Shown: piece by piece, positions 1 through 57,971 of the stretch | Layout of the letters: each line of letters opens with the position of its first letter | How positions within the stretch are numbered: the stretch's first letter is position 1 | Assembly: GCA_023231475.1 (NCBI GenBank) | Contig: JALJEE010000748.1 | Coordinates: 1-64,000 of the forward strand | Source: Seison nebaliae | Taxonomy: Eukaryota | Direction of reading: 5' to 3' | Length of the DNA: 64,000 bases | Translations under genes and position numbers: made by a program | Notes under the pieces: generated by a model | What the model was told of the DNA's origin: nothing | Seen by the model: the letters and a program-made list of their open reading frames with translations, nothing else | The model's database searches: none

Positions 1-194
1 TCGCAATCGTTATTATATGCCTTCTCTCCGTTTATGTCGACTTCCTTATGATATGTCGATAAATGTCGTCTTAATAATGTTGTCGAATTATTCTTCTTCT
101 CAATTTTTTCCGCACAAATATTACAAACGGCGTAATGTTCATCTTCAATATCTTCTTCGAAATAATTCCAAGCGCAGCTGCGACGTGAAGGCAT
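1..194 (-). mobile_element. BED zinc finger N-terminus of a hAT-type transposase or ZBED protein; ORF runs off the window start
   Basis: ATG at 194 gives MPSRRSCAWNYFEEDIEDEHYAVCNICAEKIEKKNNSTTLLRRHLSTYH. This matches the BED pattern W.YF...CxxC...STT.L.RHL...H. Not in the ORF track because it has no stop inside the window. Confidence 0.8.
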
Positions 195-204
195 GTTGTG
201 TTAG

Positions 205-4088: not shown

Positions 4089-4211
4089 GAATCCCGGAGC
4101 GGTATTCACCTTATGGGGGAATTCACCCTGTCACTCACCCTGGAAAACCGTTCCAGAAACTCAGAGAAACAGGGTTAATTCCCCCATAAGGTGAATACCG
4201 CCCCGGGATTC
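4089..4211. mobile_element. MITE / hairpin, 123 bp with 43-bp terminal inverted repeats
   Basis: 4089-4131 (gaatcccggagcggtattcaccttatgggggaattcaccctgt) is the reverse complement of 4169-4211 with 2 mismatches. It is a GC-rich island in AT-rich DNA. Confidence 0.85.
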
Positions 4212-4628: not shown

Positions 4629-7523
4629 ATGCTTACCAAAAAGCAGAAAATTGACAGTTCATCTGGAGATATGGCAGGAAGTTTCTCTTCAATTCCCATT
4701 ACGAATTAAATGTTGATTTTCAGGTTGTTGTAATGTGGTGAATGATGTAGTGCCACACAGTTCTCTCGGATTAGTTATCGGGAAAGGCGGTTCGAATATT
4801 CGCGACTTGGAAGAACGATTCAATTGTCGCATTAATGTTAACTGAAAGAATTTTCTAAATTTTGAAGAGGTAAAAGTTTTGCTAATGTCAATTTTCTGCC
4901 AATTTACAGCTGGATAAAAATAATTCGACAGAAATGGGAGTTCCATTGAGAATTGCTGCAAAGGCGGAAAACGCACCAATCGAAGAAGCGGCGAAAGCAA
5001 TTCGTCAACAGATCGAAGAACAAACTGGAGTTAAATTCAGTAATAATTATCGTAATTCGAAAGCATTCGTTTATGGAAGGACATCCATCACTTCTTCAGA
5101 TGATCGACGAAAATGGAATTCAAATGATAAAGATGAGTGGAATGAGACTACTAGAAACAATAATTATGGTCGATCTGGAAATGATAGAAGGAATGGGAGA
5201 AGCGATAGGAATGATGATGATTTTGGAACAAATTGGAATAATTCCAGAAGAAATGATCATTATAAAGACAGGAATAATCGAAACGATAATGAGGGTTCAA
5301 AAAATTGGAATAATTGTAAAACTGATGACAATTGGAATAATTGTAAAACTGATGATAATTGGAATAATTCTAAAACTGATGACAATTGGAATAATTCTAA
5401 AATGGATGACAATTGGAATAATTCAAAGAAAAATGATGACAATTGGAATAATTCAAAGAAAACTGATGACAATTGGAATAATTCTAAAATGGATGACAAT
5501 TGGAATAATTCTAAAATGGATGACAATTGGAATAATTCAAAGAAAACTGATGACAATTGGGGAAATTCAAAAAATAATGACAATTGGGGAAATTCAAAAA
5601 AAACTGATAGTTGGCGTTCGAATAAAAATGATGATAATTGGGGTAATATTAGAGATAGTGGAAGAAATGAAAATTCCAATAATTGGAGTACAGCTTATAA
5701 GAAAAAAGAAGTGGAGAAAAGTGAAGGATGGAAGACTGATGGTGGTTGGTCGACAAATGATTGGAATAATTCTTCTAAGAATAATTTTAGTTTGAGAGAT
5801 GAAAAGAAAAATTATCGTAATGACAACAATTCGAAAAGTTCTTTTCATGAGAAGAAGGATGAAAGTTTTTATAATAGTTTCCCATCCAACGACAACGAGA
5901 ACAACAAAGATTTATTGAAATCATTAGAGAATAGTGATGGATCGATTGATTGGGGTGCGATTCGAGAGGAGATGAAAAAACCAGCTTCATTAGAACGATG
6001 GACGAATTATCAGAAAGAAATCATCAAAGATACATATCATATTCATGAAGAAGTGGAAAAGATGACAAGGGAAGATGTAGAAGAATTTCGAAAAGAAGCT
6101 CTCGATCTTATGGTTCTTGAAGGAAATGATTTACAATCAGCTTTACAACAAGGAACCACCGAAGATGGTCATGCCGTCGCCGATATTTCAAACATAAAAA
6201 TATCATCTGAATCATCTTATGAGAATGTAATGAAACCATGTAAAACATTCTATCATGCTTTCCATTCACAACCTCAAATTTTAGAGGAGATGATGAAAGC
6301 GAAATTTGAAAAACCATCACCGATTCAAAGCCAAGCATGGCCAATCGCTTTATCTGGTCGTGATTTCATTGGAATTGCTCAAACGGGAACAGGAAAAACT
6401 TTGGCTTTTCTCCTACCTGCCATGATTCATATTTGTGCTCAAACTCAACCGATAGCCGAACGATTAGGACCGAATATTCTCGTTCTTTCCCCAACTCGAG
6501 AATTGGCACAACAAATCGAACGAGAAATCGCCAAATATAGTTTTCAAGGAATTCGCAGTCTTTGCATTTATGGTGGAGGAGATCGAAGGAAACAAATCGA
6601 AATATGTCGACAAGGTGTCCAAGTGGTAATTGCGACTCCTGGTCGATTATGGGATTTACAATCCGCCAATCATATCGACGTAAAAAGTGTAACATTCCTC
6701 GTATTAGATGAAGCAGATCGATTATTAGATTTAGGATTTGAACCACAAATTCTAAAAATTCTTTTAGATATTCGTCCTGATCGACAAACAATTATGACAT
6801 CAGCTACTTGGCCTATCGGTGTACAACGATTGGCAAAGAAATATTTTACTAATCCTGTTTATATTCGTGTCGGTTCTTTAGAATTGTCTACCGTTAAAAC
6901 GGTCGAACAGAAAGTGATGTTAGTGAATGATGATGAGAAAGAAAGTGAAATTTTAAAATTATTACGAGAATTAATGAGACAAAATGAATCGATTCTCATA
7001 TTCTTTATGAAGAAAGTGACTTGTGATTTCCTCGCGGCTAAAATCGGAATGAAGGAAATTTATTGTGAAGTGATTCATGGTGGTCGAGATCAAATTGATC
7101 GAGAACAAGCGTTGGAGAACATGAGGAATGGTGATTGTAAATTATTGTTGGCGACTGATGTGGCAGCTCGTGGAATTGATATTCCAAATATCACGTTAAA
7201 TTTCATCAATTTTCCAAAATTATTTTTTTTAATTAAACATTTTTTTTTTCAGAGTTGTAATTAATTATGATTTTCCGAAAGATATGTCAGAATATGTACA
7301 TCGTGTGGGAAGAACCGGACGTGCTGGACGTAAAGGAACAGCAATTTCATTCTTCACCAAATACAATTGGTCGAAAGCGACAGAATTAATTCGAATGATG
7401 GAAGAACATGATCAATTAATTCCTGATTTCTTACGTTCCATGTCTCAGAGATTCATTAAACATCAAGAAGAGAATCCGAAAACGGATCGTTTTAATAATA
7501 ATCGTCGTCGAAATCGATATTAA
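4629..7523 (+). CDS. DDX43: KH-domain DEAD-box RNA helicase, DDX43/DDX53-like, ~906 aa, 4 exons (4629-4680, 4724-4836, 4910-7194, 7253-7523)
   Basis: Exon 2 encodes the KH motif [29 protein letters not shown]. The core has Q-motif [50 protein letters not shown] and [12 protein letters not shown]. Splicing restores [11 protein letters not shown]. Confidence 0.88.
5302..5645 (+). repeat. Coding tandem repeat, 27-30 nt unit, ~13 copies, encoding DDNW(N/G)NSK(K/M/T)
   Basis: gatgacaattggaataattc(t/a)aa... is repeated in frame between the KH and helicase domains. Confidence 0.95.
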
Positions 7524-7612
7524 TATAAGAATAATATTGTTGTTGTCGTTTTTGTTTTATTAATTAAAAATTTCATTGTTTGTTTGTTTCTTGAAAAATT
7601 TGGAAATTTCCT

Positions 7613-8615
7613 TTACAAATCCATATCGGTGAGAGCACTTATAATCGGTTGTTGGAGTAGTGCAGCTAATTCTATAGAAAGAGAATTTTTTATTTAATTT
7701 TTCATGTTTCTCATTAAACTTTTTATGGCGGTGTTTATTGCAGCTTTTGATGCTTCACCTAAAGCACTACGTCGATTGAATGGTGCAATCTTTGACAATT
7801 CGTTGATAATTTTCGAAACTTCTTTGACGATACCTTCAAAAAATTATTTGAATTTCTTTTTCTAATCATAATATGAACTTTGTACAGCAGCATTTGCTTG
7901 TGGTTGGATTGTTGATGCCAAATGATGGAGAGCAGCAAGATCACTAAATTTAAACTATAAAAATTTTCTTTATCTTAAACTGACTAACCGTTTGCCTAAG
8001 CCATTCGTAGCGATGTCATTTAAGAACTTTAAAGCGGTTGTCAAGAAACCTGTCAAATTGATGGTGAGTCAATCGCTAAATGAGGAAATAGAAACTGGCT
8101 TTGATGTTATTACCTAAATCAGTTAAGGTATCTCGTTGATCTTCTAAATCTCTAAAGAATAAAAATAAATTTTTGAATTTTCTCAATAGAAATTTAATGA
8201 ACCGTTTACCTAAACCGTTTGAAGCGATATCGTTCAAAATTTTCAATACTGAAGTTAAAACGGCTGAAATTAGAAATGTTAGTAATGGAAGAAAATTGAA
8301 AATTTATTAAAAATTATCAACTTTGTTTTACACCGTTAACTAAATTGGAAGTGATATCAGTAAAATCGGAGATAGCTCTCAAATCATCCGATTCGATGTC
8401 ACGTCGACCTAAAGTATCCAATTGGTAGCCAGCTAAAACATGTTGCAATGTATTTAATGCGGCTTATGAAACTAGATGGTGAATGAAGAATGAATAAACT
8501 AACAATGTAAACGATCTTTGAGGACATCTCTCAAATTCTGAATTGGGTCAGGTGTTAAAGGATTGGCATAAGTAAAGGCCACGAGGGCGAACAAGATGAT
8601 CATAAAAGATTTCAT
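7613..8615 (-). CDS. Secreted multi-peptide precursor, 222 aa, 8 exons (8615-8504, 8462-8322, 8263-8203, 8151-8096, 8049-7989, 7943-7879, 7833-7720, 7671-7613)
   Basis: Signal peptide MKSFMIILFALVAFTYA. Seven 41-58 nt GTT..AG introns give one open frame of 669 nt with processing sites LGRR, NGLGKR (twice) and FNRR. Exons 3 and 5 are paralogous 61-nt exons. Confidence 0.82.
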
Positions 8616-9648
8616 TTTCAAGTAAAAGGAAGAAAAGTAGTTGGGAGGTGTCGAATGAAATATCGGAGTTGATATGTAGAGGAATTTATGAACATATTCC
8701 TCCGGTAAACGAATGGTCAAATTCTCATAATCATTTTCTATTACACCTCTCCGTCATCCTCAACAAATTAGTGAAATTTGCGGAGGCAACTTCCTCCTAT
8801 TTCTTGGAGACGTGCAATAATTGAGGGACTGTCACTAATTTTCTCATTTGTCCAACTTTCTTATTCCATTCCTTTTATTTCTATTTTTGCTCTAAATCAT
8901 TTTTCAGTTCCTTTGCACGTATCAAGTCTTAATCAATTTATTTCATAAATTATTCAATTCTTAATATATAATTATTATCATTTCTCATTCGTCTACAACT
9001 TGTCAAATTTACTAGAATTACTCGATTATATAATTACAACTCACAAAACAGCGTGAAAGATATTCATCTGCATATTCTTCTTTTCACTTTATTCTCCTTC
9101 ATTGATTTTATCGATTGAAAATATCGATTAAATGAATAAATTAACTAATTTCCCTTATCAGTTTTTTTAGGATTTTTATGAAAATTAATTTTGAATAAAA
9201 CAGGAGAAGAGAATGGATAGATTGATTTATTTATAATAGTAGATATTGTATACGGGAAAGTATTTCATAATAATAATAGAAAGGAAAAAACGAGATTTAT
9301 AGATAGATCAATATATTGTTAAACATATCCATGTAAATAGATGATCAATTATACAAATTAAAATATGTCATTAACGAAATGAAGTTCAATAGACAAGAGA
9401 AAGAAAGAGAGAGAAAGAGAGAGAAATAAAATTTGTATTCGATTCATTCGTATCATTAGGTGAGATGGATATGGATCGAATCGGAATCAACCAATCTGTT
9501 TCATAAAATTTGGAGAGAAATCTGACAATTATTCTTGTCGATCGATATGAATTATACAGAAACAATTTACAAGAAAAATATACCACACACATACACGAGA
9601 GAATGAGGTGGAGAGAAGAGAATTATGGCAAAAAAAAATCGATTGACT

Positions 9649-24700: not shown

Positions 24701-24798
24701 GCACTGAGTGACAGAGGAAGAAATGATGATGCCGATCTCTCAATTGATAATTCCGTCAACAACAAAATAATTATGATGCGTATGATGAGATGGAGCAT
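21761..24798 (-). CDS. lev-9: Secreted WAP + 8 CCP/sushi protein, LEV-9-like, ~838 aa, 10 exons
   Basis: Hydrophobic N-terminus and WAP domain (CMKVCRSDKDC...CMCDGDCGMSCVN), followed by eight exons that each encode one C..C..W..C sushi module with phase-1 introns. The terminal module YCTHPGTLHNGTIFLVGHFGEYEY...CLNGEWKPKERPKC resembles the conserved LEV-9 C-terminal CCP. The last micro-exon (21780-21761) is uncertain. Confidence 0.8.
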
Positions 24799-35300: not shown

Positions 35301-35474
35301 TGGAACATTATCTCTATTCTCAATTTCATCTTTTCTCATTGTTGATGGAAGAAGAACCGGCTCGTGCGATTTGTGTCATCGCTAAAAGTCGATTCTTTCA
35401 TCTCCTCAAAAATTTAGTTCAAATTTATTTCATTCAGGTCGATTTTAATGATACAACAGTTGATCAGGAAATAA

Positions 35475-35507
<33 letters not shown>

Positions 35508-38500: not shown

Positions 38501-41500
38501 CTTACAGGTTCGTCTTTTTTATTCTCATTATTCATCTTCTTTATTATCATTAATTCTATTTATATTTTTTCTAAATTATTATCTTCAAACAATTACATAT
38601 ACAGTATATTTCTGTTTCGTTGTCTGTTTTTCTCCATTTTTTTTTTCAAAAAAAATTTTAAGTAAAATTTCATTTATTTTTATCTTTTTCGAACGAGAGA
38701 GATTTATTCTTTCCTCATCCAATTTTTTCTTTTCAATAATTATAAGTAAAACTTCATTTATTTTTATCTTTTTCGATGATTATAATTTGGTCATGAAATA
38801 TTCTCGACAGAGACTTCCTTTTCTCATAGAACATTTTCTTTTCTTTTAATATAATTTTTTAAATATAAATCGAATTTATTTGTTGAGGAATAGCAAAAAA
38901 AAAAGAAAAAAAGAGTTTAGCATTCAAATCGTTTGATGGATTCTTTAGAATCGATAAGTCCAAAAAATAAAAGTCCTTGTGGTGTGTTAATGTTGACTCG
39001 TTTATAACCTTGTTTGTAATTGGTGGGAGTAGGTTGGGGAGTGATTGCATATTTCACTTCACCTGATAATGTCAAGATGGAAACGGCAGCAGCATCTGGA
39101 TCAATAACGATCACATCCTCCGAATTCAACATAGCCACTCCACAACTCATATCGGAAATATTATTATCCATATTATCATTCGTTCGATCACTCTCTTTTG
39201 ATAATGATCGATCGAATTGTTGTACTAAATCAACATCAGCAAAATGAGCATGACGTTTTCTTTGTTCATCATGATTATTATTATTGTTGTTGTTGTTCTT
39301 ATCTAGAGTTAGAGTTGATAGATTAAGACTAGAAGCGATACTAGCAGATTCCAAATATAAATTATGATCATCTACTTGTTCACATTCGTCGACTTGTTGA
39401 ATTTGTTTAGTTTGTGTTGAAACGTCAAATTCTTTTTGTTGTTCCTTCCTCGACATCGACGATGTTATTGTTGATGATTTAACAAGATCATGAATCATTC
39501 GAATATCTGTTTGTGATTCTTTCTCCAAAATGAAATTGTGAATCATTCGCCATCGATATAATTGTGTTCCTCTCTCATAATTGGTGGCTCGATCTTTCAT
39601 CTCCTTTTTCACTTCTTCAATTCTATTGGAATCAACTCTCGTTGGTGTTAATTCATTCTCATCACCATTACCATCATCATCATTACCATCATCATTATCA
39701 TCATTATGAAGTTGATGCCATTGACGTGGTCGACGTCGTTCTTTCTTTCCTTGATTATTTGTTGGAGGAAGTGATATAAGAGATATTTTATCTATTGGTT
39801 TCGACAAATTAGTTCGATCGTCATTTGATGAACATGGTGATAATCGACCGAATTCGATGGAATTACTAAGAAATGTCAAATGGAATTGGAATCCTGTATT
39901 CATATTCGATTCTTTTAATTCATTCCATAACGAGTTGTTGGACATTATATCAAATTTTTCCAAAATCTTCTTTTTCAATAATAATAATTCAACATCGTAA
40001 TTCTCGACGGCCAAATGAGCAAGAGAACAAGTTTGTTTCAATTCTTCTAAATGTCTTTCTACCAATTCCTTCTTTCGTATAATACTATTTCCATCTTCTC
40101 CATAATATTTGTGGAGTTGTTCAATGACTGCCGTTTCACTTTCTCGAATGATTTTCACATATTGTGAAGCAGATTCATGGATCTTATTTTCCGTTTGTAA
40201 CATATGTAATTGACAATCTTTCATGACCATCAAATAATTATTCAATTCATCCATCTCTTTCCTTCCACTATTCAATGCAGCCATTAATGTTGATCGATGT
40301 TGTTTGACTCCTTCATGGAAATCGAGTAATTCATGATCACTATGTTGAGTGAAAGTGCAAATGACACAGACACATTCATCACATCGTTCACAAAAGAATC
40401 GAACATTCTCTGATGGATGAATTGAACAAGTCGCCACACTTTCCATATTCAATTCATAAAAAGTGTGAGTGGCAGTAATACGAAGTGAACGATGTTGTTG
40501 AGAACATTGCTCACACATCAATTTATTACAATCCACACATTTACATGTGGCTAAATTATCGATCTTTTTTGTCTGACGACAAATATCGCAAAAGGATTTG
40601 GGAACGGTGGATCGTCGTTCTTCTCCTTTACGAATCATTTCCGTCAGATTTTTTATAACGAAATTATCTGGTAAAGCATTAACGCCTGATAATGGTATTT
40701 TGGTCTTTTGACGACAGAGTGGACAAGAGAAATCTTTCCCACCAAACTTATAAGAGGAATTGAAAGACTTTCGCGAATTTGAATATATTCCATTCTGGAG
40801 ATGTTCAAGAATACAAACCCCACAGAAACTGTGAAGACATGAAAGTGCTTTCGGATCTTTATATCGTTCCAAGCAGATTTTACATGTTAAGAATTCGTCA
40901 CTAATCTCTTGGGTGAGCGAACGAATGTTGATGGGGTGATTGGCAGTCATAGAAGAAATAGAAGGAAAAAAAATCGCCGTTCACAGACAGACACTCCAAA
41001 AGGTGAAATGATGAATGTGTGGGATAATGAGAGAATATGTGTGTGTGTGTGTGTATGAATTGAAATTGAAAAAATTTACCTATCGATATATCGATGTTCG
41101 TTAGGGGAGTGTGACGTTAATGATGATTTATCCTCGAACATTCAATCTCCCGAAATATTTTGATGATTGTAAATGTGTTTAATTCGACGGAGGCGATACA
41201 TAGTAGCAGATTGATTAGGCCGTTCTTGTTGTTGTTGTTGTTGTTGTTGAGGGAAATGTTAGAATAACAATAAATAAAAATAAATAATGAATCAGTTTGT
41301 TCTCGGACGAATTATTTCCCAAATTTCACTTCCCAATTATGATTGATTTTGGGAGAGATGAGAATCCATCATCATAATCATCGCTTCTTCTTTTCCTTTA
41401 TCCCTTTCAACTTTCTCCTCTGGAAGATGAAGGAACACAACATTAACTGTAATTCAATTCACTCTCCCAATCGAAGACTATTTTATTAATGAGGGAATGG

Positions 41501-44319
41501 TTGAGGAGAAGATTATTCTTCTCCAATTACACATTCCATTCTATTCCATTCAACCAATTCAACCAATTCAATCGTTCACATTCCAATCGCTTTCTTTTGT
41601 GTCTCTCTGTGTTTGTGTGTGTGTGTGTATTTTGTGTAATTGAGAGTGAGTGAAGGTCTTCTGGAACTAAATAAATTCATTTTATTGATCATTTCCACAG
41701 AACTATAATTCATTATGCATTTCCTTCTCCATCTTCTCTATTTCCTAATCTTCACATTTATCTCTTTATCTTTTTTTTCTCTTTTTTTTTTAAATATTAT
41801 TTATATACTCTCAATGTTGTTGTTGTTGTTGTTGTTGGTTGATTGGTGAATAATAATGTATAATTATTTTTTGTGCAGATATCAATGCAGTTTTCAATCC
41901 GAGAGAAAGTCGAAGAAGATTCTCCATCGGTTCTACGTCGTCGAGAGCAACGTTCAATATCGAGAATTATAATGACAGAGATAGAACGTATATTTTTCAA
42001 AGAGAAAATGCTTATGATGAATATCCGGAAACGGATAGTTCAAATTATTCCTCTACATCAGCTGATGGCAATGATGATGATGATGACGACGATGATGATG
42101 ACGATGATGATGATCGTATGGACTTGGATGATAGAGGAGAAAGTGAGAGCGACTTGGAAGAAGAACAATATGTATCGGAACATCCACATGAAAATAGAAG
42201 AGGAAGAGGGAGAGTAGTAGAAAGAATGAGATTTCCAGGTGACCGTGACAATCCTCGAGAATTGTTGTTCGTCGGCAATTTCTCCCAACGAATCTTATCG
42301 TCATCTGAACGATCATTTACTTCAATTTCATCTGATGGTTCGGCGAACACGGAGAATGATTCATCACAATCCTCCATTTCTGGAATATCGGACAATCATG
42401 AGAATCAGGAACAATTAGAACGTCTTCATAATTGTTATAATTTCACCGATTTCTTCGAAGGACCAATTCGTTTGACTTTCCTCACTGGATCCAATTTAAG
42501 TCTTCATGAAGTCGTTTATCAAATCAGAAATCAAGGTGGAATGTTAATGAATCGTTTGAATGATGGTGAAGGAGATGGTGAAGGAGATGAAGATGAAGAT
42601 CAAGAAATGGCTGAAGTTCATGATTCTGAAGATGATGATGATGATGATGATACACATTTGGAAAGTAGTGAAGGAAGTGATGATGGAGAAAGTAGTGACG
42701 ATGATGATGAAGACGAAGAGAATGATGAAGAAGATGATGATGATGAGGAAGAAGAAGAAACAGATCATCATTTATATAATAGTGGATTAATAGGTGCCGA
42801 TAGTTCCACCGATGATGATAATGATCATTTGAATCGGAATAATATTGATAATCGTCATACTGATGAACAAATGGAAGGAAATGAGAATGATGATGCCGAT
42901 TGGAATCATTTGGTTAATTTGGATTCGGTGCCAATGGAAGAATGTCCTCCAATACCAGATGATATAGAAGAGAATCATAATAGTAATAATTATCGATCAC
43001 AACAACATCCATTTCAATCCAATCAACAATCTCAACATCAGAGACCAATGATTGAAGATGATGAAGAAGTGCCGATATATGAAGTAATTGATGATGGACA
43101 TGATGATGATAATGGTAATGGAAATATTAGAAGAGATGAAGATGGTGAAGATTCCGATGCTCCAATTGGACAACCAATCGAAGAATTATATAGTGATATT
43201 GATGATGAGAATGATGAGAATTTGGAAGAGACAACTACTTGGTCATTAAATCCAACAGAATTCCTTAATCAAATGACTTCTGATAATTCATCAAATCATA
43301 TGGTATCATCATCATCTGATACGATCAATCCAACAAATAATAATAATAATAATAATAATAATGATCACATTTTCTCTGAAACATCAACAACAACGAGAAA
43401 TATTCTCGATTTCCTTAATGATAATAGTGAAGATAATGAAGTGAATAATAATGAGGATAATAATGAGAATAATGGAAATGCATCTGGTGATACGACAAGA
43501 GAACGTGAAATGTTAATTCATGTCATTGATGATTTATTGGATCCAGGAATGATGGAATTGGTTCTATCAGGAAATGGAGAAATTGTAGAAGATATCATTC
43601 CACATACACGACATAATGTTGGTGATGATGATAATGGGGCTGATTTTGGAATAAACGAAGATGACGAAGAAGATGATGATCAATTTTCAGAAGAAGATGA
43701 TGATGATACGATAAATGAACAAGATGATGAAGATGAGGAAGATAATGAAAATTCGGAAAGTGACAATTATTCGACACATAGTGAATCATCAAATATTATC
43801 ACGATCGATCCTCGAAATGATGATGACGAAACTTATGATTATGTAGATGAAGATATTAATCCCACAGACAACAATCAACGATATATAGGCGATATTGATG
43901 AACCGATTGAAACGACGTTACATTTCGATCCTCAAGAAGTTCCCACATGGAGTTCACGTCGTCATGATGAAATCTTTCGAGTTTTCCAATTAAATATGAT
44001 CAATCGTCGACGTCGAAGTAATGCTCGTCGATTATTGAATAGTCAAGGACCACCGATGGCACAAGCCTTACAAACTAATATGAATTCATTCAACACTCTT
44101 TATGATTTCTTTAACGATTCTCACACATATCGACCATATCGAACATTATTGAGATATGATGATCGTTTACGATCAAATATCGGTCTCTTAAATGGACATC
44201 GTCATAATCGTAATGGAAGAAGTAGTTTTATACGTTCTTCTCACACTTATTTTCGATTCGATGATGAGAATAATAATAATAATAATGGAAATGGAAATAA
44301 TAATAATAATAATAATGGA

Positions 44320-44356
<37 letters not shown>

Positions 44357-44358
44357 GA

Positions 44359-44392
<34 letters not shown>

Positions 44393-46449
44393 GAGGAAAT
44401 GGTCGTGGAAATATATTTTCACGTCGGAATATGTTGACACCATCATCGACTGGTGGAATGGTGATAACGGATGAAACGAATAATATGAAACAAACACAAT
44501 TCGAGAAACACATTTGGCCAGATAATGATGATGAGATTATTAACGAATTCGCTCAACCATTGACGGTGAATCATTCGATTTTATTAGAGACGTCATTGAA
44601 GAAATTGGAACGATGGCATTTTGGAGATCGAGAAGAGATTTCTGATGAGAAATTAGAGGAACGTAATCGACAGAAAGATGAATGGGGAAGTGAATTAATT
44701 AATGGATATATTAATGCTTTCAAATCACCATCAACCAGTTTAACAGCTGCACCAGGAACATTATCTGCACGAACATCACCAGGTGATGGTTTCTCCATTG
44801 AACATGTTGTGGGAAAGAATGGAAAAATGACTGATCGATATCGATTATGGGATTTGGAAGTGGAACGAATAAAATCGTCGAATGAGAAAACATTTTTCAT
44901 GGCGAACAAACCATTGAAGACAAGATCATTCCGTTATACGGCTGATGAATTTATTCCACCATTCCGAAATGGTTCAGCATCCAAAACGAATATTTGGATC
45001 GATTCTGATGATGATATTAGTGATAATGATCAAAATGATGATGAAATGGCAGTTGAACATACGATCGATGTGAATAATTATACATATCTTGTTTCTGATG
45101 AGAAATTGGAAAAAGGACATGAAACGACTGTGAAGAATTATTATGGATTATGGGCAACAAATGAAATTCTTCGTCCATTATTCAATTTCTTATTAAGAAA
45201 TAGTCCAAGAGATGGAACTTATATTCATTCGTCGTCATGGCAACGATGGAATGAAGCGAGTGCATTATTAGATGGAGCATCTGTTGTTGATGTTGTATCA
45301 ATTATGAGACAATTATTTTGTATTTCTATGACATATTATCATGTGGAAATGAAGAAGATTTTAGGGAATGGAAGAATATTTTGTGGGAAACGATTAGTGA
45401 ATTATAATAGAAAATCAAAAGATAAACGACAATCAAATGACAATATTTCTAATAACAAAACAACAATAACAACTACTACTACTACTACTACAACTACTAC
45501 CAATTCGACAACAACACGATCATCTACTATGTCTAATATTAGAACGGTGAATGTGCAACCAGCAATTGTAACGAATAGAAGAAGTACGAGAAATCGGAGA
45601 ACGAAATCGAAAAGTCAAACGATCAATTCAATTAAAAGCGATGTAGATATGAGTGAAGAAACGGAGAAGATTGTTGGAAGTTATATGACGATCGGACAAC
45701 GAGTTAGTGCGAGAAGAAATAGAGGAAATAAGATGTTGGAAACAACAGTGAAGACACCACCAACACCACGTGAAGTTCATTGGAGGAAGTTGTTGGATTT
45801 GAGATCGAATCAATATTTCTTCACTTATCTTTATTTTACGAGTAAATTTCCCAATGGGAATTCGGGTGAACGTTCTATGTCAACATATATGGAATCTTAT
45901 ATGCTCATGTCGAATAATTGGATGAAGAAATTCGAGAATGTGGACAGACGAAGAAAGGATCAAGAAGAATTCATGAGACGCTTCAAACAAAGTCAATTCT
46001 TCGTTGGTGATCAATTCGTAATGGATACAATCGGAATTAATATGGATGAAATGAAATCAGAAGATGAAGAAGGTAATCTCGATCTGATTATGGGCAAATA
46101 CTTCGAAGAACATCGGGCTGATGATGACGAAGATGAGGATCCATGTTCCGTCTCATTAGATGTCATACAATATCGTTGTGAAATATTTTATACGGAAGAA
46201 CAAAAATTATATCAATCACAAATCATTGAAGAAGGTAAAAGGAAAGTTATGGAAAAGAATCAAATTATTTCTAATGAATTAATCGATTCAAGTGAAAATG
46301 ATAAAAATAATCACAACAATAATAATAATAACAACAACAATAATAATAATAATAACAACAACAATAACAACAACAATAACAACAACAACAATAACAATAA
46401 TAACAATAACGAGAATAATAATGATGATGAAGAATTTCTTTCGAACAAC

Positions 46450-46521
<72 letters not shown>

Positions 46522-47136
46522 CAGAATAATAATAATAATAAGAATAAAGATGATGAAGAAGAAGAGAATGAGGAGGATGAAAATGAAGAGAATATAAAAG
46601 TTTTTGGTGAAACGACTTTAGATGATGAGGATGATGATAGTGAAAATGGAGGAAATGAAATGATGGATGTGAGTGAAATGGAAAATAAAGAAAATGAAAA
46701 TGAAACGAAGGAAGAAAAGAAAGAAGAAAAGAAAGAAGATGATGAGAAGAAAGAAGATGAAGATTATTTTATTTTCAATTATTTCGATCATTCTATCAAA
46801 GTTCCGAATATGGTTGATCGTTCATTTCTCGAAGCATTACCTACGGCTTTGTTGGACGACGTTCTAACACAAGTCAACGTATCATTACCATCAACCAAAG
46901 ATTACGTACCAACCAACATTACCACTACAGTAACATCAACGATTGCATCAATTACATCAGTAGAAGGAAGGACAACAACGTCAACTGATCAATCAGTCGT
47001 TCCTGCGTCGGAAGAAGATATGTCGAATATCATAAGACAGGAATTGAATGATTTTCTTATGGCCTTACCGTTACGTATATTGGAATTCGTTAATCGAAAT
47101 GAAAGAGATCAATCACTTCGAATACAGACTACTTCG

Positions 47137-47169
<33 letters not shown>

Positions 47170-50100
47170 TCCACCATCCCTCCTACTACTTCGACTACTT
47201 CAACGAATTTAGCAGAAATGACTCGATTAGTTAATTCGATGTCACATGAGACAACAACAACAACCATTCCATCAACAAACTCGTCAGCCACTGATCAACC
47301 CGAATGGTTTTTCCAACAAATATTGGATAGAATGGCAAATTCGGAAGCAAATATCTCTTCAACAACAACAACAACATCATTAGTTTCATTGTCGTCATTA
47401 GAAACGATAACAGCAACAACAACAACAAGACCACGAATTAATTTTATTAATAATGAAAATGAAAATTCTTCAAATCAAAATCAATCATCTCAATTATCAC
47501 AAGATTATGGTGATGTATTATTTGAAATAGCGAATCTTCCCATTCCCACAAGTAGAGTCATTCTCTCCGATTCAGAAACATCGATCGATTCTTTATCAAC
47601 ACGAATTCCTTTCCAAACAACAACAACAACAACATCATCTAACGGTTTACCAACAGGACCAATATCATCATCAACAACAACAACAACAACATTATCATCA
47701 TCATCGTCAACAGTTTCCTCAATAACAATGACGTCGTTGAATGCCGCTTTCCGTCAATGTAATGACACTTTCAGTGATGCCACTCAAGTGTTTGTGGATC
47801 GAACGATAAATTATTTGATAGAAACGACAGAAAATTTCATTGAAAATTTAATAGCGATTAATGGAACGTCATTCATTTCTACCATTAACGAAGTGATTAA
47901 TTCGATGACGACGGATTTGGCAAGTGGTGAGAATCGATTTTTAAATATTTTGGAACGTGTACAAAATCCGGAGCATAGTCTCGATGATTTGACACCAGAA
48001 GAACGACGTTTATTTGCTTCTGATATTTTGAATTTATGCAATCGATTATCAGAACATTTGAACGATAATTCTGATACTATTTCAGATGAAGGAAATCCTA
48101 GAGCAATTGTTTCATTAACATCTCTCGATCAACTCACATCAACATCAGGAAATGGTAGTCAACCATTCCGTATTACTTATCCATTCCGTAATGGAACATC
48201 ATCAATTATCACTTCAATTGATGGAACATCAACGAATAATCATCCAACTACTTCTTCCACTCTCATACCACCACCGTTATTTTTATTTTTTTGTTTAAAT
48301 TTTAAAATCTTTTTTTTTCTTTAGAGTATCGATGCCATTACCAAGAATTATTACATCAACACGACAACCAGTCGTATCACAACGACCAAGAGATACATCG
48401 ATGCCATGTGATTTCCTTCGAGATATGCCACAAGCATTACGTCGACAATTAATGGCTGATATGAGAACAGAAGATCTTCAATTCCTTCCATATGATTTGA
48501 GATTGGAAGCAGAATCTGTTATTGATCATGGTGGCGCTGGTGGCGGTGGTGGTGGTGCTGCTGCTGCTCAAGGATATCATGGTTTAATTTCATTCAAAAT
48601 TTTTATTAAATTTAATAAATTTATTTTTTTATTTTTTTACAATTCTTTAAACTCTTTCTCAGCTTTAGATCCTAACAACAACAATAATAATGGAGATGAT
48701 GGTGGTCATATGAGAAATGATCCCTCACAAGATCAACTTCATCGAATGAACGAGAATATGTTTCAGCAAGCACTATCACGAAATAATCGACAATATGTTC
48801 GTCGAGGTGATGGGATAGTTGGTGGACGATTAACACGACAAGTTGGTGGAAGTCGAGAATCTGGTGATCCGAGATATACATCATTAAATTTGAGAACATT
48901 ACGAAATACAATTATTGGAAATAATTATCCACAATTCAGTTTATGTATGTTCTTCTATTATAATTTATTACGATCACGAACATTTTATGCAAATGCTGAA
49001 CGACTCTTTCAGAAGACTCATAAATTTATTTCATTCGAAGATATTTATAATTTCTTAACACTCGTCGATGTTTCAGTACCGATTTCATCTGTTAATGAAA
49101 CATTGAAGACATATAATGGATCGCCATACACATATATCGATTCGAATTGGGGAATCTTTATATCCGACGTGCAAATTATGTTGCCATCAATCATTATGGA
49201 GAATATGAGATATACACGATCATTATTTGGAATTGATGGTGGTGGTGGTGGTGATGGTGGTGGTGATGATGGTGGTGATGATGATGATGGTGATATTGAT
49301 GGTGATGGTGATGGTGGTGATGGTGATGGACCTGGTGATGATAATCATCGAATTATTCCGTCTACAACATCCAATTCGATTGTATCATCAGCTGATAGAC
49401 GAGAAATCGCTCTCGAATTACGACGAGCAATGTTCACCACCACACAAACAGCAACAACAACAACAGTTACAGTAACAACGACAACAACAACGACAACAAC
49501 GAGAAATGAACCGGTTGTTATACCTGGACCTGTTGGGACGAATTTCGCAGAGAATGAGAATGAAAGAAGAATACGAAATGATTATGAAGAGAATTTCCGT
49601 CTCTACAATTGTGTCTTACCAATGTCTGATGTACTTACAACAGAACCACCACCAATATCAGATGAACTAGAATTAAATGAAGAGAATAATACGAGAATTG
49701 ATGAAGTTTTACAACAATTAAGACGAGAAATAACAGCAGCTGAAATAGTGAGAGAAGCAGATAATTTGAATTCAGCATTATCCAATGTTATCAATTCATT
49801 GGAAAGATGGCAAGATAACATCACAACGGTAGTGGACGCATTACAACCAGTTCCATTAGAATCACAAATATTATTTGGAGGTGAATCAACAAGACTTGGA
49901 GGAGGAATAATATCATCAACATCATCATCATCAAATCGTAATAGAAATCATCCAACACAAATTTCTGTTAATCAAACAACATTAACAAATTTAATTCATT
50001 CAACATCTAATCATCCAACAACAACAGGAGTAATAGCAAGAACAACAACAACATCATCATCGGCAGCAAGAACAAGAACAACAAATAGAATAAAACCATC

Positions 50101-53100
50101 ATTAGATCAACAGAATGATGGAAAGAAGAAGAATCGAAAAGTGTATCAATCAAGATTATCGGAAAGTGAATTGGATGTTGATGGTGAGACAGCAATAGAA
50201 ACATATCGTCGTTTATTCTTGACGGGATATCGAGGAGAGAAATTAATTGAAGAATATTATGAGAATTTGACAACGATTTGGACACAAATTCGAGACAATA
50301 ATGAGAATAGTCGAGGAAATGATGATGATTTCGATGAAGATGATGATAGTGTTCACATCGAATATAAAGATTTATATGAGATCATTTTCCGTCAACTTCA
50401 TCATTTTCCCATCAATATGACTCTCTTCAATTTTCAATTACATACGATGCCGAAACAATTTGAAAGGAAGAAAATAAATTCGTTACAATTAGCACAAGAT
50501 ACTTTGCCTTCTTGTATTTTCACTTCCATTACATTGGAAGGATTGACATGTATTCTCGTTCCACTTCTTCTAAATGATCGTGATTTGACACAAATGCGAT
50601 TTCTCCGTTTACTTCAAAATATTTCTGATCATAAAGCAACTCATGATTGGATTGTTTCATCATTATTATCGATAATAGAAATGGCTCATTTCAAATATCC
50701 GTTAAACGATTTTTGTGTTTCTGAAGAGAAATCGAAAATTGTCATTCGATCATCAACACGTCGAAAGAATCAGAAAGATTGTTTTATCATTTATTCTCCT
50801 GCATGGCTCAATTATCGAGTACCGATGTCATTAGGAGAAAGAACATCAGTATTGAATTTCCATCGGAAATATAATTTAGAACAGAAGAAACCATACGGTT
50901 CCATAAGAATCGCTTTCAATCCGATTGTTGCTCCAAAAATTGTAAAATCAGTAATGAAATGTCTTTATTGGTTACATGAATATTCGCCCGCCAGTGTCTG
51001 GCGACATTTACCAGATTATTCGGTAGCGAAGAATATTGGAGAGAATGCGAAAAAGAAATTATTACCAATCTCTTCATCGATGAATCATCAATTGACATTT
51101 TGGGATTTCATCATTCGATTTGAAATGGAAAATGGCAATTTCGTCGGTCCACCACCAACCGTCATAGAAGATTTGACAGAATCGATAGATGAAGAAATGA
51201 AAATGGATGAATCAATTACGATGATTTCGAACGATATAAAATCATCCGATAATAATAATGGAGATGATACGATCATTTCAACAACATCAGAAATATCTTC
51301 GAGACAATTCATATTGAAAAATCGAAATAATAAAGAAATCGTATTAACGGTTCATGATGAGACGCCTCGATCATTGACAAAAATCAATCCAGCAAATCAT
51401 CATCTTCATCGTACACGTCACAAAATGAAACGTCCGTCAACAACAACAAAAAAACAACTTCGATCATCTTTCCCACATCATACTCAATCGTTAATGGTCA
51501 TACCAGAAAAGGGAAAGAATCAGATGATGGAAATTCCACGAATTCAAATGACTCATCATGACAATCAATCGATACCATCAATAATATCATTAGATTTCCT
51601 CATTTTATTAGAAATGATTCAAATGAGAATTTCAAATCCGATTTTTATTAAACCATCTGATTTTCATTTTTATTCTCTTCCCAAATCTATCGAAACGGAT
51701 CGATCACTCCAAAATGGTTTTTTCGATTATCGATTAATTCAATCAGATGCCACATGTGCTAAAGACGATTATCATACGTTATTGAATATTGATAGTGCGA
51801 TGAAATATTTAACGGAAAATAAATGGAAATCTCGAAATAATTTCCATCATATTCTCATTTATCGATTATTTTCCATGTTACAATTGGACGCAGTTCGTAC
51901 CAGTAAAGATGTTCTCGATTTATTAATCGAATTAATTTCATTAATATCATTCGAAATTGGTGAACAAAGACCAATGCCAACAGGAATTGAAGCGTATCGA
52001 GGAAATGTCATTCAATCGATAAAATCGGCCGATTATATTGAAATAATTCCAAGAATTTGGCAAGGATTCTATCAACAAATTCTCAATCCGGATGAACCAT
52101 ATAATACCAATGTTCCATTTGGTTATAAGAAGGAAATAGAATTGATTGTGAATGTTTTGAAAGGAATCGATACATTCGAAGAATACGATGAAGATTATGT
52201 CATTGGTGATTTGAATAAGAGAGCGATCGTTTTATTTAGTATGTTGATCGAACCTAAATTTATGTTTCCTGCACAAAAACCATCAATTCAAGATTATGAT
52301 TTATTACAATTATTATTGAATCGAATTGTTCGACCGACTCATTCGATTAATGAGAAGAATTTGAAGACACTCGAATTATTTTATTCGATGAATCATTTGA
52401 CAGATATCGAAATTTCGAGAGATATCTTCTCTTGGCTTTATGCTTTCCTTCGCGAACATCTCTACATTCTCCCACCACAACAATTGGAGAGATGGATCGA
52501 AGTCACCACTCAACGATTAACATCGAACGACGGTTTATCCTTCGTTCTCCATACAACATTCGCTTTCGCTCAATATAATTATCCGACGGCGAGATTAATT
52601 TTGAATATTTTAGAAAAAGAATTCCTCAAAGTGGCGATCGGTTTAACGAAAGAAGTTCGTCAATTAACCAACGAAATGAAATCATATCGAGCCAAATTAA
52701 ATGCGACGACTGAAGGACATGATAAATCAGCAGCTGGTCCCGGTCCATCCACTGATGATAAGAAAAAGAAGAAAAAGAAGAAACATGTCAATTTGGATAA
52801 TTCGAATCAATTAAATAAGAAACATATTGGAAATGTCGTTCTTGATGATACAGGACGTCCAATTATCATAAGTAAATCTGATGTTGTCTCTCAAACTTTA
52901 GATGTGAATTTGAAGACGATTCGACATTTCTCTCAACGTACCTCACAACAAGTCTTCTTCGCCAAAATGTTAGAAGCGATTTCCGTTTTACGGAAATATG
53001 TCGATGGAATTAAAACGCCATTTACTCTCATCCATATCACATCGAAACGAATGAGTGTTCTCACTGTGATTATTCGACAAGTTTTCGAATTACTCTCTCA

Positions 53101-54876
53101 ACAAACATTCAATGATGAGAATGAAAGATGTAAAAATTTCCTAATGGTAATTGATGATATTCATCGAATACTTTTCAGATATTTTATTCGATTGAGAAAT
53201 GCACAATTCCAAGAGAAATTCATTACGAAAAAACAGAAAACAGAAAAAGAATTGATGAAAGATGAATCGATTGATATTGATGGTAATTCATCATTAGATG
53301 AAACTTTTGGTTTTTTACCAACATATTTATATTCAGATACGAATATTCCTATTCAATTACCGAATGATAATGATCAAAATAAATATCTTCGATTGACGTT
53401 GAGTTTGAAGGAGTGTATGAATTATAAAATTATGGATGCAGATTATCTTCCACTTTCCTGCAACGGAAAAATGAAAGATAATTATTGTTATTGTTCAATT
53501 CCATTATATCGAACGTCGGAAATGGAGAATTTGTGGAAAGGACTTGATGAATGTCTAACAGAAATGGCTCAATTTAGTTCTGATGTGAATTTAGTTCTCG
53601 TTCTGGAGAAAACTATCAAATCTTTCTTTACCATTCTCTCAACTTATGATTCGTCAGAGGATACGAAACGTTTCAAGAATTTATTTTTTCAAACATTCAA
53701 AGAACGTTCATATGAAGCTGTTTTGAATGAATGGGAGAAAATACGACCACCATCATCATGGTCCGATAATGACTCAACAACAACAACAACAACACAAATA
53801 GATGAAGAACGGTTACGACCTCATTTAACAACAACAGCGAGTACGAATGGAGTGACAACGATTGGTGGAATACGAGGAATACATATACCATTGACTACTA
53901 TGACAACGGCACAAATAGCTCCAATTCCATCAACTGGATTCAAGAATAATAATCGGAATGCGAAGAACGTCCAATTCTCTCATATCAATAATGTAACGAT
54001 GTTGGACGATTTGAAACATTTGTACAAAGTGAAAAAATTGACGAACGAAGAAATTATGAATTATATTAAAAAATATTTTGCGGAACGTCCAAACGTCGCC
54101 AAATATCCTTCACACGAAGTCCAACGAATTGTCCAATTCGGAAAGAAACATCGTGCTCTCATTAATCAACTGATTCGAACATGTGGTGGACGACTTCAAC
54201 GATCAACATTTGCCACTTTCAAAAATTATCCGCATATTCTCGATTTCGATGTTAAACGAGAATATTTCCGTCAAAATCTCGATAAATCTCGAAGAAGACA
54301 ACTTGGAATTCAAGTTCATCGTGAACGTGTATTCGGAGAATCATTCTTAACATTAGCCAATCTACCCCCAGAAAAATGGAAGTCTCAATTCTTCATACAA
54401 TTCTCAGGTGAAGAAGGACAAGACGCTGGTGGATTACTTCGTGATTGGTATCTCGTGATGGCGAAGGAGATCTTCAATCCCAATTATGCGCTCTTCATGT
54501 TAAATCCGAGTGATAAAGTGACATATATGCCACATCCAGCCTCTCATGTCAATGCTGATCATTTGAAATATTTCAAATTTGTCGGTCGATTAATCGCCAA
54601 AGCAATTTTCGATAATAAACATCTCGATTGTCATTTCACTCGAGCATTCTACAAACATATTTTGGGTAAACCCGTCAGGTTTCATTTTTCATTTTTTTTC
54701 TCATCTTTCTTCAATTTCTTTTTTTGATCTTTTTTCAATTTCTTTTTAGTTATACTGATATGGAAAGTGTCGATAATGATTATTATAAAAATTTACAACA
54801 TTTATTAGAGAATCCAATTAACGATATGTATATGGATATCAATTTCACAGTCGATGTTCATCATTTATTTTTTTTC

Positions 54877-54910
<34 letters not shown>

Positions 54911-55607
54911 TTAGATTAATCAATTTGGTGAGACGAAAACCGTTGCGCTGATTCCGAACGGTGAGAATATTATGGTGACGGATGAGAATAAACACATGTT
55001 CGTCAAATTAGTTTGTCAGGAGAAGATGATTGGAGCGATCCGAGACCAAGTACATCATTTCTTAGAAGGTTTTCATTTCTTATTTTCCATTCATTTAAAT
55101 TGGATTCAATATCGACAGGATTTTATGAAATTATTCCAAAGAAAATGATTTCCATATTTAATGAACAAGAATTAGAGTTATTGATTAGTGGATTGCCAAC
55201 GATCGATATCGATGATTTAAAACAGAATACCGTCTATGTCAGATATCGAACAACATCGCCACAAATCGTATGGTTTTGGGAAGTTCTACGGGCCATGGAC
55301 GAACAAGAGAAAGCGAAATTCATTCAATTTGTTACAGGAACATCGAAAGTGCCATTACAAGGATTCGCTCTCCTCGAGGGAATGAGTGGAATTCAAAAAT
55401 TCCAAATTCATCGAGATAAACAATCAACCGATCATTTACCATCAGCACATACATGGTTATTATTTTAATTTTAATCCTTTTTATTTAATTTATAATATTT
55501 TCTTCAGTTTCAATCAACTCGATCTTCCCGAATATGAAACAAAAGAGAAGTTAAAGAAGATGTTGTTGATCGCAATCAATGAAACTGTCGGATTTGGTCT
55601 AGCCTAA
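29330..55607 (+). CDS. HUWE1: HECT E3 ubiquitin ligase HUWE1/Tom1 ortholog, ~7,514 aa, 8 exons (29330-38507, 41879-48275, 48325-48581, 48663-54678, 54750-54855, 54915-55068, 55119-55455, 55508-55607)
   Basis: N-terminus [11 protein letters not shown] is similar to HUWE1 MKVDRTKLKKT. DUF908/913-like ARM region ([17 protein letters not shown]), WWE-like WLTYSPN...YGIDFGTM, and UBM-like [14 protein letters not shown] domain [17 protein letters not shown]...[13 protein letters not shown]...[16 protein letters not shown]...ETVGFGLA, with the catalytic Cys codon split by the last intron. Confidence 0.92.
38917..40950 (-). CDS. TRIM E3 ligase (RING, B-box1, B-box2, coiled coil, one NHL-like remnant), TRIM2/3/56-like, nested antisense in HUWE1 intron 1
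   Basis: [32 protein letters not shown]...CPLCR; B-box1 CDIC...[17 protein letters not shown]-box2 [35 protein letters not shown]-like [15 protein letters not shown]. Single 677-aa ORF. Confidence 0.9.
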   Translation of the reverse strand: MTANHPINIRSLTQEISDEFLTCKICLERYKDPKALSCLHSFCGVCILEHLQNGIYSNSRKSFNSSYKFGGKDFSCPLCRQKTKIPLSGVNALPDNFVIKNLTEMIRKGEERRSTVPKSFCDICRQTKKIDNLATCKCVDCNKLMCEQCSQQHRSLRITATHTFYELNMESVATCSIHPSENVRFFCERCDECVCVICTFTQHSDHELLDFHEGVKQHRSTLMAALNSGRKEMDELNNYLMVMKDCQLHMLQTENKIHESASQYVKIIRESETAVIEQLHKYYGEDGNSIIRKKELVERHLEELKQTCSLAHLAVENYDVELLLLKKKILEKFDIMSNNSLWNELKESNMNTGFQFHLTFLSNSIEFGRLSPCSSNDDRTNLSKPIDKISLISLPPTNNQGKKERRRPRQWHQLHNDDNDDGNDDDGNGDENELTPTRVDSNRIEEVKKEMKDRATNYERGTQLYRWRMIHNFILEKESQTDIRMIHDLVKSSTITSSMSRKEQQKEFDVSTQTKQIQQVDECEQVDDHNLYLESASIASSLNLSTLTLDKNNNNNNNNHDEQRKRHAHFADVDLVQQFDRSLSKESDRTNDNMDNNISDMSCGVAMLNSEDVIVIDPDAAAVSILTLSGEVKYAITPQPTPTNYKQGYKRVNINTPQGLLFFGLIDSKESIKRFEC
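44269..44391 (+). repeat. (AAT)n coding microsatellite, poly-Asn with Gly interruptions, in HUWE1
   Basis: Direct reading of aataataat...ggaaat blocks. Confidence 0.95.
46315..46540 (+). repeat. (AAT/AAC)n coding microsatellites, two long poly-Asn tracts, in HUWE1
   Basis: Direct reading; in frame within exon 2. Confidence 0.95.
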
Positions 55608-57056
55608 ACACTCACCATCATTTTTTTAAATAACGTTTTAATATTTCTCTTTTTAATTTTTTTTGCGTCGGTGATATGCACATTCATGCGTCGGAATCCG
55701 TTCGGTGATACATTAGTGACTGACGATGATAATTGTTAAAAATATTTCATTTTATTATTTTTCATTTCATTTTACTCAACATCGAAAGAGTTATGATGAT
55801 GATTGATGGAAATGGCCATCCTCAAAAAAGTTAAACAAATCAAAGAAATGTTTAATGAAAATGATGGAACAGAAAATTTCATTATTTTCTTTTACACTTA
55901 CTCCAATTCTTCATCTTCGATTCAATTCGATTATTACATTTTTCCTACTTTCTTTCGAAATTCATATTTTATTCCATTCTGTCCAAATCTCGTCGTCTTC
56001 CTGATGATATCGTTGGATATATACACATTTATTTCATTCCAATCTTCACAATTTGAAGTTGGTAAGAACTGATATTTCTTTTCCAATTGTGTGATGACGG
56101 AAAGAAGAATAATTATGAAAATTTTTCCATTTTCTATATCGTTCATTCCACTTTATTCGCCTTCAAATTGTTGTCGATGAAATGAAAATGGATTTTAATT
56201 CATTTATCAAATTATCATCTACGAATATTTCGTTCATCAAATAAAATTTTTCTTTATTATCTTCCCATATAATTCTGATTAATACTTCCAAATGAGAATT
56301 TTAATCGATAAATTATTATAAAACTTTCGAGACAAAAGGGGAAAATTTATTAACGATAACATTTATTAATACAATATCTCATTTAAAATCCCATTATTTG
56401 GAAATATTGAAATTATATATTTGAATGGATTATAATATCGATATTGATTGATATCATGTTGATTAGTCAATTTACTTAATAATCATAAATATTAATCATA
56501 TATCTTATCTATATAATCATAATCAGAAATATTTTTGGACAAAATTCCAATTTCGAATCCTCTCACTTCTTTTACTACTTATATTAATGCTTTCCAAGTT
56601 CACTCAATCTTTTCTCATACTATTCGATACTACGATTTACCACGAGATTCCTTCTCGATTTTAAGGATTTCATTTTTTCTTACGATCCGATCACGTAATT
56701 ACTTTTATTATTCACATTAATCAACAAACTTTTATCGACTTGCACCACTCAATATCAACGTAGGTGAAGACTGGAATTTTTTAAATATTTTTTCGAATTT
56801 ATCCCGACAAGAATTTTGCAAAGAATTATTTTGTCAAAATGTCAATTTTTAATAATAAATTATAAAATATGCCGAAATTGATATTATTTCAATTTTTAGA
56901 ATGGCTAGAGTGAATTTTACATGTATTACTTGTTATTTTTAGATGATAAATAATTTAACAAGATTTTATTAAAAGAAAAAATTTTGAAATCAATCATAAT
57001 GAGAATAAACGGAAAAATATGTTCGTTGTTTTGGTTCAATTTGACCATTGATGTTT

Positions 57057-57971
57057 TTATTTGATATGGATTCCTGTGCCAAATATGGAAATGTATTTCC
57101 GGAGGATTCTGAAGAAGAAAAAGAATGTTAAATAGATCCGACGACCATTAGTATCAGGGTAAATAGCAGAACGAGAGAATTATTTTTAATTGTGACATAA
57201 TAATAATGGAAATGAAACATAATATCAGGTTATGATATTTATAAGAAATAAAAGATGATAAAATAATTGATAAAAAAAAATGAAATTGTCATAACTTGAG
57301 TTCAATTGATTTCCTACCGTCCACACATTCCCCATCGACATTGTAAGTGGATGTTCGTTGTGGATTTAATGGATAGATGTGGAGACGAGTACATCGTAAC
57401 GGTTTCACATGTCTGCTACTTCTCTATTTTGTATGAATGGAAAAGATGAAGTATTAGTTCTGATAATCATCAACTTCGACCTATTGACACATAAGAATGC
57501 CGATGAATGGGAAGTGACATGTGCATTACTTTTATCTTCATAATTAGTTGAAGAGAATAATGATAAAAATTAATTTATTTTATTCATTCCAATGGAAGAA
57601 GACCTAAAGAATGAATGACGAGAGAGAAGAAAGAGGATGAATGTCAATGAGCGCATGAAACTGGTGGATGGGATGGTGGAAATCCGTTATTCATAATTAA
57701 CAATTTCGTTCAACTAACCAAATGATACGCATTCCTTGAACAACGTATCAAATAGAGCAGATGTTGAATAAATGAACATCGTTCCAACAATGTCACATCG
57801 AATGTTCCGTCACCTAAATGAGATGATGGTGCTAAACCATAACGGCTCTTCTTACACAAACAAGAGATGACATTACAATTTAACATTTGGAAATGATCGC
57901 TCCATTCGATTTCCGATCCTTTCCTCGCTCCATCAACCAATTCCAACGATTTGACCTTACACTTTTCGCAT
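57057..57971 (-). CDS. CERK: Ceramide kinase, 3' exons only (57971-57719, 57423-57296, 57108-57057); 5' exons not located
   Basis: NVISCLCKKSRYGLAPSSHLGDGTFDVTLLERCS matches the CERK CxCxxSxxGLxPxxHLGDG motif. It is followed by STYNVDGEC and KILRKYISIFGTGIHIK*, similar to RVHCQLVRLFARGIE. Confidence 0.8.

Follow-up and report, generated by a model that had tools for sequence, protein, structure and literature searches.

A near-fixed T at the third position of intron donors in the seisonid rotifer Seison nebaliae

In this study, we investigated the donor sites of Seison nebaliae, which is described as a seisonid rotifer with Nebalia crustaceans as hosts, in one 64,000-nucleotide stretch of DNA (GenBank assembly GCA_023231475.1, contig JALJEE010000748.1, positions 1 to 64,000, forward strand). 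This whole stretch is referred to here as the window, and all Seison donor counts come from it. We show that GT–AG introns at ordinary positions in this animal have a third letter that is nearly fixed as T. Eight genes were rebuilt by coordinates, the first donor lying at 4681 and the last-listed one at 57718, and with 46 introns removed all eight are free of internal stop codons. All 46 introns are GT–AG; 45 begin with GTT and one with GTC, while GTA and GTG are absent. This agrees with a preliminary description made from the sequence of the window alone, as does the recount of G at +5 (nine introns). From this window, the rule of U at +3 in the transcript very probably extends to the whole genome.

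The positions around the third letter are much looser, and 24 different donor hexamers occur among the 46 introns. The intron starts continue with A (17), C (14), T (14) or G (1) at +4, with A (19), T (11), G (9) or C (7) at +5, and mostly with T (28) or A (13) at +6. The exons end most often in A (20) or C (17) at −3, in A (30) and never G at −2, and in A (20), G (15), T (7) or C (4) at −1. The acceptors are CAG (20), TAG (20) and AAG (6). Most introns are short (41–59 nt in 33 of 46), and their bodies are rich in T (47 %) and poor in G (7 %). No branch-point motif rose above chance in the 46 introns; the short and degenerate YTRAY is found in 24 of them, against 22.9 in shuffled sequences.

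Transcripts use these donors. Additional file 2 of PMC8351084, in the part available, consists of GMAP alignments of S. nebaliae Trinity transcripts. Rows were located by matching exon and intron lengths to the gene models, and for six other length patterns no row was found among those listed. All 41 listed rows of the contig were converted to window coordinates, excluding one junction with its donor beyond the window, all junctions that lie entirely outside it and a gap of 2 nt. At least 26 transcript junctions at 25 donors have both ends in the window. All 26 are GT–AG and begin with GTT, and none can slide to another GT–AG; 25 equal introns of the models to the base, and the remaining one joins donor 8503 to a second acceptor at 8433, removing 10 codons in one transcript. 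The preliminary description had named the use of nearby GTA or GTG donors as one outcome that would speak against it, and among the rows listed 25 of 25 donors are GTT. None of these rows covers DDX43, TMCO1 or a 3,371-nt intron of the HUWE1-like gene. In one transcript the last two Brahma introns (9807–9979, minus strand) are retained. Three further sequence runs over 7000–20400 have the character of DNA contigs; of their 44 joints, the 15 listed include no match to an intron, and the runs have no bearing on expression.

The intron borders are supported by several independent lines of evidence. At least 25 of the 46 introns are supported to the base by transcripts, 12 more without a transcript row match public SLC6 and TMCO1 models, four more are pinned by Pfam profiles, and five are placed by frame and composition, so that 41 of 46 are backed by RNA, a public model or a profile. 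Three protein searches with single exons gave 100 % identity over the query to the Seison nebaliae entries SNEBB_000950, SNEBB_000951 and SNEBB_000952. When the corresponding public proteins P0001, P0121 and P0122 were mapped exactly onto the DNA, 22 introns resulted (21 GTT and one GTC), for none of which does another GT–AG placement give the identical protein. In a profile of 82 SLC6 proteins from outside Seison, the GTT junction ranked top among the frame-keeping alternatives for eight of nine introns, and at intron 9 it tied with a GC donor. A spliced aligner without a term for +3, run with non-Seison homologues, placed all seven SLC6 introns in the aligned span where the annotated GTT introns lie. 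Searches with TMCO1 and the sushi-repeat gene matched only Seison's own proteins, and no Seison Brahma entry was found among the best 150 representatives, the highest identity being 58 %.

The Pfam coordinates continue without a break at the helicase junction and at four HECT junctions. The four introns that have their support from these profiles are HECT 74/78, 114/116 and 273/275 and Helicase_C 84/86, the last being the third intron of the DDX43-like gene. Frame and composition place introns 1–2 of the DDX43-like gene and introns 1–3 of the HUWE1-like gene, among them the 3,371-nt intron, which on these borders follows the GTT rule with a GTTCGT start, as had been claimed for an intron of 3.4 kb. 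The single exception reported earlier, GTCTCA at 20752, is found again, its basis being the public protein model. Some additional calls of the blind aligner in Brahma, outside the 46 (starting GTG, GTA, GTC, GCG and, in one case, GTT), were rejected because the five that were scored show exon-like composition (−20 to −47 bits) and transcripts cross 10131–13175 unbroken. Among 1,914 frame-keeping GT/GC–AG segments scanned within exons, the highest score was 8.8 bits, which is within the range of true introns, and hidden introns are therefore possible where transcripts give no cover, mainly in the HUWE1-like gene.

The introns concerned are old. Eighty metagenome-contig loci with SLC6 relatives were run through the same aligner, and in most of them it called no intron. 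Of the seven Seison SLC6 introns in the aligned span, five (profile positions 236, 360, 440, 483 and 558) recur in the same phase in loci L059, L039 and L077. At these five positions, the donors are four GTG and one GTA in L059, four GTA and one GTT in L039, and four purine donors and one GTT in L077. Since other animals mostly use GTA or GTG where Seison uses GTT, these are old introns that have been recoded: inherited introns were changed in place and are not new inserts. The shared positions also led us to reject introner-like mobile introns, SLC6 being the one gene compared with genomic DNA. Positions 89, 133, 281, 326 and 516 are common to the control loci and absent from Seison SLC6, and Seison has therefore lost introns as well. 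In addition, the model P0055 of the bdelloid Didymodactylos is without precisely the exon between Seison SLC6 introns 6 and 7, which suggests that the same exon borders exist in a bdelloid.

Counting all calls, GTT is absent from L059 (0 of 13, two calls doubtful), L028 (0 of 6), L040 (0 of 4) and L070 (0 of 4), and also from L025, L031, L047, L061 and L066 with one to three calls each. A further six loci (L018, L022, L023, L030, L058 and L065), whose 12 calls are isolated or irregular and include three GTT, were set aside as doubtful. GTT accounts for four of 10 donors in L039, two of three in L072 and one of 10 in L077, three AT-rich loci with introns of 46–73 nt that form one clade in the tree. 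These loci show a mixed donor state, and their pooled share of seven in 23 differs from the 45 of 46 in Seison at P 1.9e-9. The tree did not place them with rotifer orthologues; they represent another SLC6 paralogue. Locus L039 probably comes from a rotifer because the two nearest Atlas clusters of the protoglobin beside its SLC6 gene are mostly Rotifera, which is a lead and not an identification. At 10241–12489 this locus carries intronless protoglobin and CorA genes beside the intron-rich animal SLC6 gene, an arrangement that fits foreign genes in a rotifer.

The use of these donors in transcripts, the old positions of the introns and, as set out below, the failure of composition to explain the third letter support the view that this lineage requires U at +3. 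The preliminary description had proposed a spliceosome that prefers U there, and the first cause it suggested was a U-to-A change in the 5' end of U1.

As to the recogniser, the donor pattern favours, though only indirectly and at about an even chance, an altered U1 small nuclear RNA (snRNA) with an A facing +3. The sixth base of U1 is a modified U that pairs with +3 and so takes A or G, which yields the usual GTR donors. An A at this place would take U alone and would produce a one-letter rule that mirrors the donor data, and for this reason a U1 with the 5' end 5'-ACUAAC-3', pairing with GUUAGU within the major spliceosome, is favoured. The exon end (A or C at −3, A at −2) would add contacts with U1 and U5, and outside the subsets with GTTAGT and GTTCAT, positions +4 to +6 would contribute little. 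A canonical U1 target from −3 to +6 hardly separates true donors (4.63 of nine matches) from 119 nearby decoy GTs (4.44), and the target with U at +3 gives 5.61 against 4.51, a gain that arises partly by construction. GTTAGT, which is the canonical GTAAGT altered at +3 alone, makes up five of 45 donors; the interiors of the introns hold 609 TT words, and AGT follows none of them (P 3e-10). We also count A at −2 (30 of 46) and C at −3 (17 of 46) in favour of U1, and Entamoeba, where U1 has ACAAAC facing GUUUGU, provides a precedent (bioRxiv 10.1101/2022.06.08.495308). GTTCAT is the commonest hexamer, with nine of 46, and is enriched over the intron background (P 1.4e-4). The lineage would have arrived at such a U1 by way of mixed GTA and GTT donors, as in the probable rotifer locus L039. 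In its full form, the proposal is that the major spliceosome of this animal has been recoded, with GUU the obligatory start genome-wide and purine donors dead. Introns would have been converted in place as U1, and perhaps U6, changed, following a mixed stage that other rotifers still retain. This combined proposal we put a little below an even chance.

Several observations weigh against a changed U1. The commonest hexamer, GTTCAT, mismatches ACUAAC at +4 and +5, and even the changed U1 forms only about 5.6 of nine pairs. GTA is scarcer inside introns than expected (seven of 77 GT words, P 0.024), which may mean that GTA still counts as a donor. At neither threshold did Rfam detect an snRNA in the window, hence no Seison U1, U5 or U6, and it found none in five control loci. 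In the available text of Roy and Bowser (bioRxiv 10.1101/2022.06.08.495308), an unchanged U1 goes with atypical donors in several lineages, mostly +4 cases. Lastly, +3 is reported to touch G44 of U6 as well in activated human complexes.

This last contact leads to a different explanation, in which U1 is canonical or permissive and the demand for U at +3 arises at a later point, in the catalytic core, from a change in the ACAGA box of U6 (the G contacting +3) or from the proteins holding it. A single nearly invariant position next to loose ones is reminiscent of the check on +1 and +2, the U6-type class GURAG is represented by none of the 46 donors, and AG precedes GT in only eight. An unchanged U6 G, by contrast, should accept C at least as well as U, and C is found once in 46; moreover, Entamoeba changed its U1 while keeping the ACAGA box, according to the portion of the same preprint at hand (bioRxiv 10.1101/2022.06.08.495308). 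We consider enforcement in the core possible, if rather unlikely. Another explanation is that a protein reads GUU, so that a diverged U1C, LUC7 or U-rich-binding helper picks the donor with little U1 pairing. Pairing is weak under any U1 model, the intron bodies are T-rich and G-poor, and U1C is strongly diverged in Entamoeba, again in the text available (bioRxiv 10.1101/2022.06.08.495308). The GTTAGT subset is still present and speaks for pairing between RNAs at +4 to +6, and we regard recognition by protein as unlikely.

The data come from a single window, and one chromosome of Micromonas is on record as having splice signals of its own (bioRxiv 10.1101/2022.06.08.495308, text available in part), so the rule could in principle be local to a contig or chromosome, or the GTT introns could be recent insertions of a mobile family. 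Eight unrelated genes on both strands all obey it, five SLC6 introns match other loci in position and phase, and the bdelloid P0055 lacks exactly one exon bounded by two Seison introns; a local rule or recent insertion is thus very improbable. It is, if anything, slightly less probable that the spliceosome is indifferent to +3 and that a mutational bias toward T accounts for the letter found there. Of the 5510 GT words of the window 2204 are GTT, in intron interiors already 46 of 77, and the AT-rich, short-intron loci L039, L072 and L077 reach seven of 23. At a share of 0.6, however, the binomial P for at least 45 GTT in 46 is 2.0e-9, T, counted 45 times at +3, occurs only 14 times at +4 and 11 times at +5, and the AT-rich loci themselves differ from Seison by the test given above. 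Donors read by a canonical U1 one base shifted (GTT-NN-GT) begin with GTT and need G at +6, and this scarcely credible reading is refuted for the window, where G at +6 occurs in two of 46 introns and GT at +6/+7 in one.

The genes that contain the 46 introns are given in Table 1.

Table 1. Spliced genes of the window and their intron donors
Feature	Position	Strand	Introns and donors	Remarks
KH and DEAD-box helicase (DDX43-like)	4629..7523	+	3 introns: 4681-4723, 4837-4909, 7195-7252	All GTT
Secreted repeat-peptide precursor	7613..8615	-	7 donors: 8503, 8321, 8202, 8095, 7988, 7878, 7719	All GTT; all in transcript rows
Brahma/SNF2 ATPase	9649..14037	-	5 donors: 13683, 13435, 10130, 9979, 9857	All GTT; all in transcript rows
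SLC6 transporter (= P0001, SNEBB_000950)	17811..20239	+	9 introns; donors 17820, 18539, 18961, 19139, 19297, 19477, 19743, 19953, 20147	All GTT; intron 19953-19999 in transcript row
TMCO1 (= P0121, SNEBB_000951)	20598..21462	+	4 donors: 20752 (GTC), 20865, 21031, 21223 (GTT)	
TMCO1 47-nt intron, sole exception to GTT	20752..20798	+	GTCTCA	Preceding exon ends AAG; basis public model only
Sushi-repeat protein (= P0122, SNEBB_000952)	21464..24798	-	9 phase-1 introns; donors 24266, 23929, 23649, 23357, 22950, 22669, 22354, 22131, 21877	All GTT; all in transcript rows
HUWE1-like HECT ligase	29330..55607	+	7 introns; donors 38508, 48276, 48582, 54679, 54856, 55069, 55456	All GTT; about 7,500 aa, start codon uncertain; intron 55069-55118 in transcript row
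HUWE1-like 3,371-nt intron	38508..41878	+	GTTCGT	Borders by frame only
Ceramide-kinase-like gene, last three exons	57057..57971	-	2 introns: 57718-57424, 57295-57109	Both GTT; both in transcript rows

Some of these genes have further features. The DDX43-like protein contains, between its KH and helicase domains, tandem coding repeats of 27–30 nt (5231–5656, plus strand). The peptide precursor consists of repeated helical-looking peptides set apart by RR/KR sites; two of the peptides end in NGLGKR, presumably an amidation-type signal; from the sequence, its products may possibly be antimicrobial peptides or neuropeptides. The HUWE1-like frame compares with 4,374 aa for the human chain and has three exons of 6–9 kb and long Asn/Asp/Thr runs. 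Within its 3,371-nt intron lies an antisense, intronless RING/B-box (TRIM-type) gene (38920–40980, minus strand), over which a transcript row spans 38887–41161 with no intron. The identity of the ceramide-kinase-like gene comes from a weak CERK_C match (E 0.0036). In one transcript, the exon of this gene that ends at 57971 is joined to sequence lying some 11 kb away, beyond the window, and 57972–64000 (minus strand) is therefore one long intron with its donor beyond the window. Outside the genes, the interval 15150–16120 is a high-copy element with 46-nt terminal inverted repeats and a contig depth of 500–900 against about 10–30 nearby, likely a non-autonomous transposon. A GC-rich 48-nt inverted repeat (92 % complementary, 27-nt spacer) at 4089–4211 gave only a sub-threshold Rfam match, and a BED zinc finger at the window edge (3–200, minus strand) is probably a transposase fragment.

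In the literature searched, which missed most subscription journals, we found no report of GTT donors in Seison or other rotifers, and absence from print is unproven. The supplements of PMC8351084, in the part available, contain no splice or snRNA terms, and the available parts of PMC4901422, PMC5688998, PMC10639083 and PMC10125929 hold nothing on the +3 donor question. As far as these searches reach, the Seison sites are the first transformed donor sites in an animal. A purine at +3 is among the most stable splice rules in animals, and it is an open question, hitherto approached in intron-poor protists, how numerous splice sites can shift in concert with the factor that reads them. In Seison, multi-intron animal genes have a one-letter switch at introns of old position, and a likely relative is in an intermediate state. 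The rule also bears on the annotation and expression of genes from this group.

Seison introns resemble canonical U2-type introns in their GT–AG ends (46 of 46), their ancestral positions, the preference for A at −2 and the remnants of G at +5 and T at +6; they differ in the purine at +3, which is found in none of the 46. The two donor classes //GURAG and AG//GU account for 54 % and 45 % of sites in humans and 44 % and 32 % in C. elegans in the accessible text of bioRxiv 10.1101/2022.04.05.487178 and PMC11347140. The first class is empty in Seison and the second holds eight introns, so that 38 of 46 fit neither. Minor introns of the U12 type have the fixed donor RTATCCT and are ruled out, as no donor has A at +3. 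The closest known system is that of Entamoeba, an intron-poor protist in which, in the available text of Roy and Bowser (bioRxiv 10.1101/2022.06.08.495308), 87.9–89.5 % of introns have GUUUGU donors, 96.9–98.5 % have GUUUGN with +3 to +5 fixed, and U1 carries ACAAAC. Seison likewise has the purine at +3 replaced by U in almost all of its GT–AG introns. It is, in contrast, an animal with 46 introns in eight genes, it fixes +3 alone, and G at +5 is confined to the nine introns counted above; with GTTTGT in none of 45 donors and 24 hexamers in use, a homogeneous hexamer of the Entamoeba type is rejected. In Entamoeba the change in U1 has been shown; in Seison it is proposed. The introns of another protist, Bonamia ostreae, are termed canonical in the available text of PMC11069148, which does not mention +3. 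Since donors with U at +3 and a co-evolved U1 have already been described there, we regard Seison as a variant of this arrangement and not as a new category.

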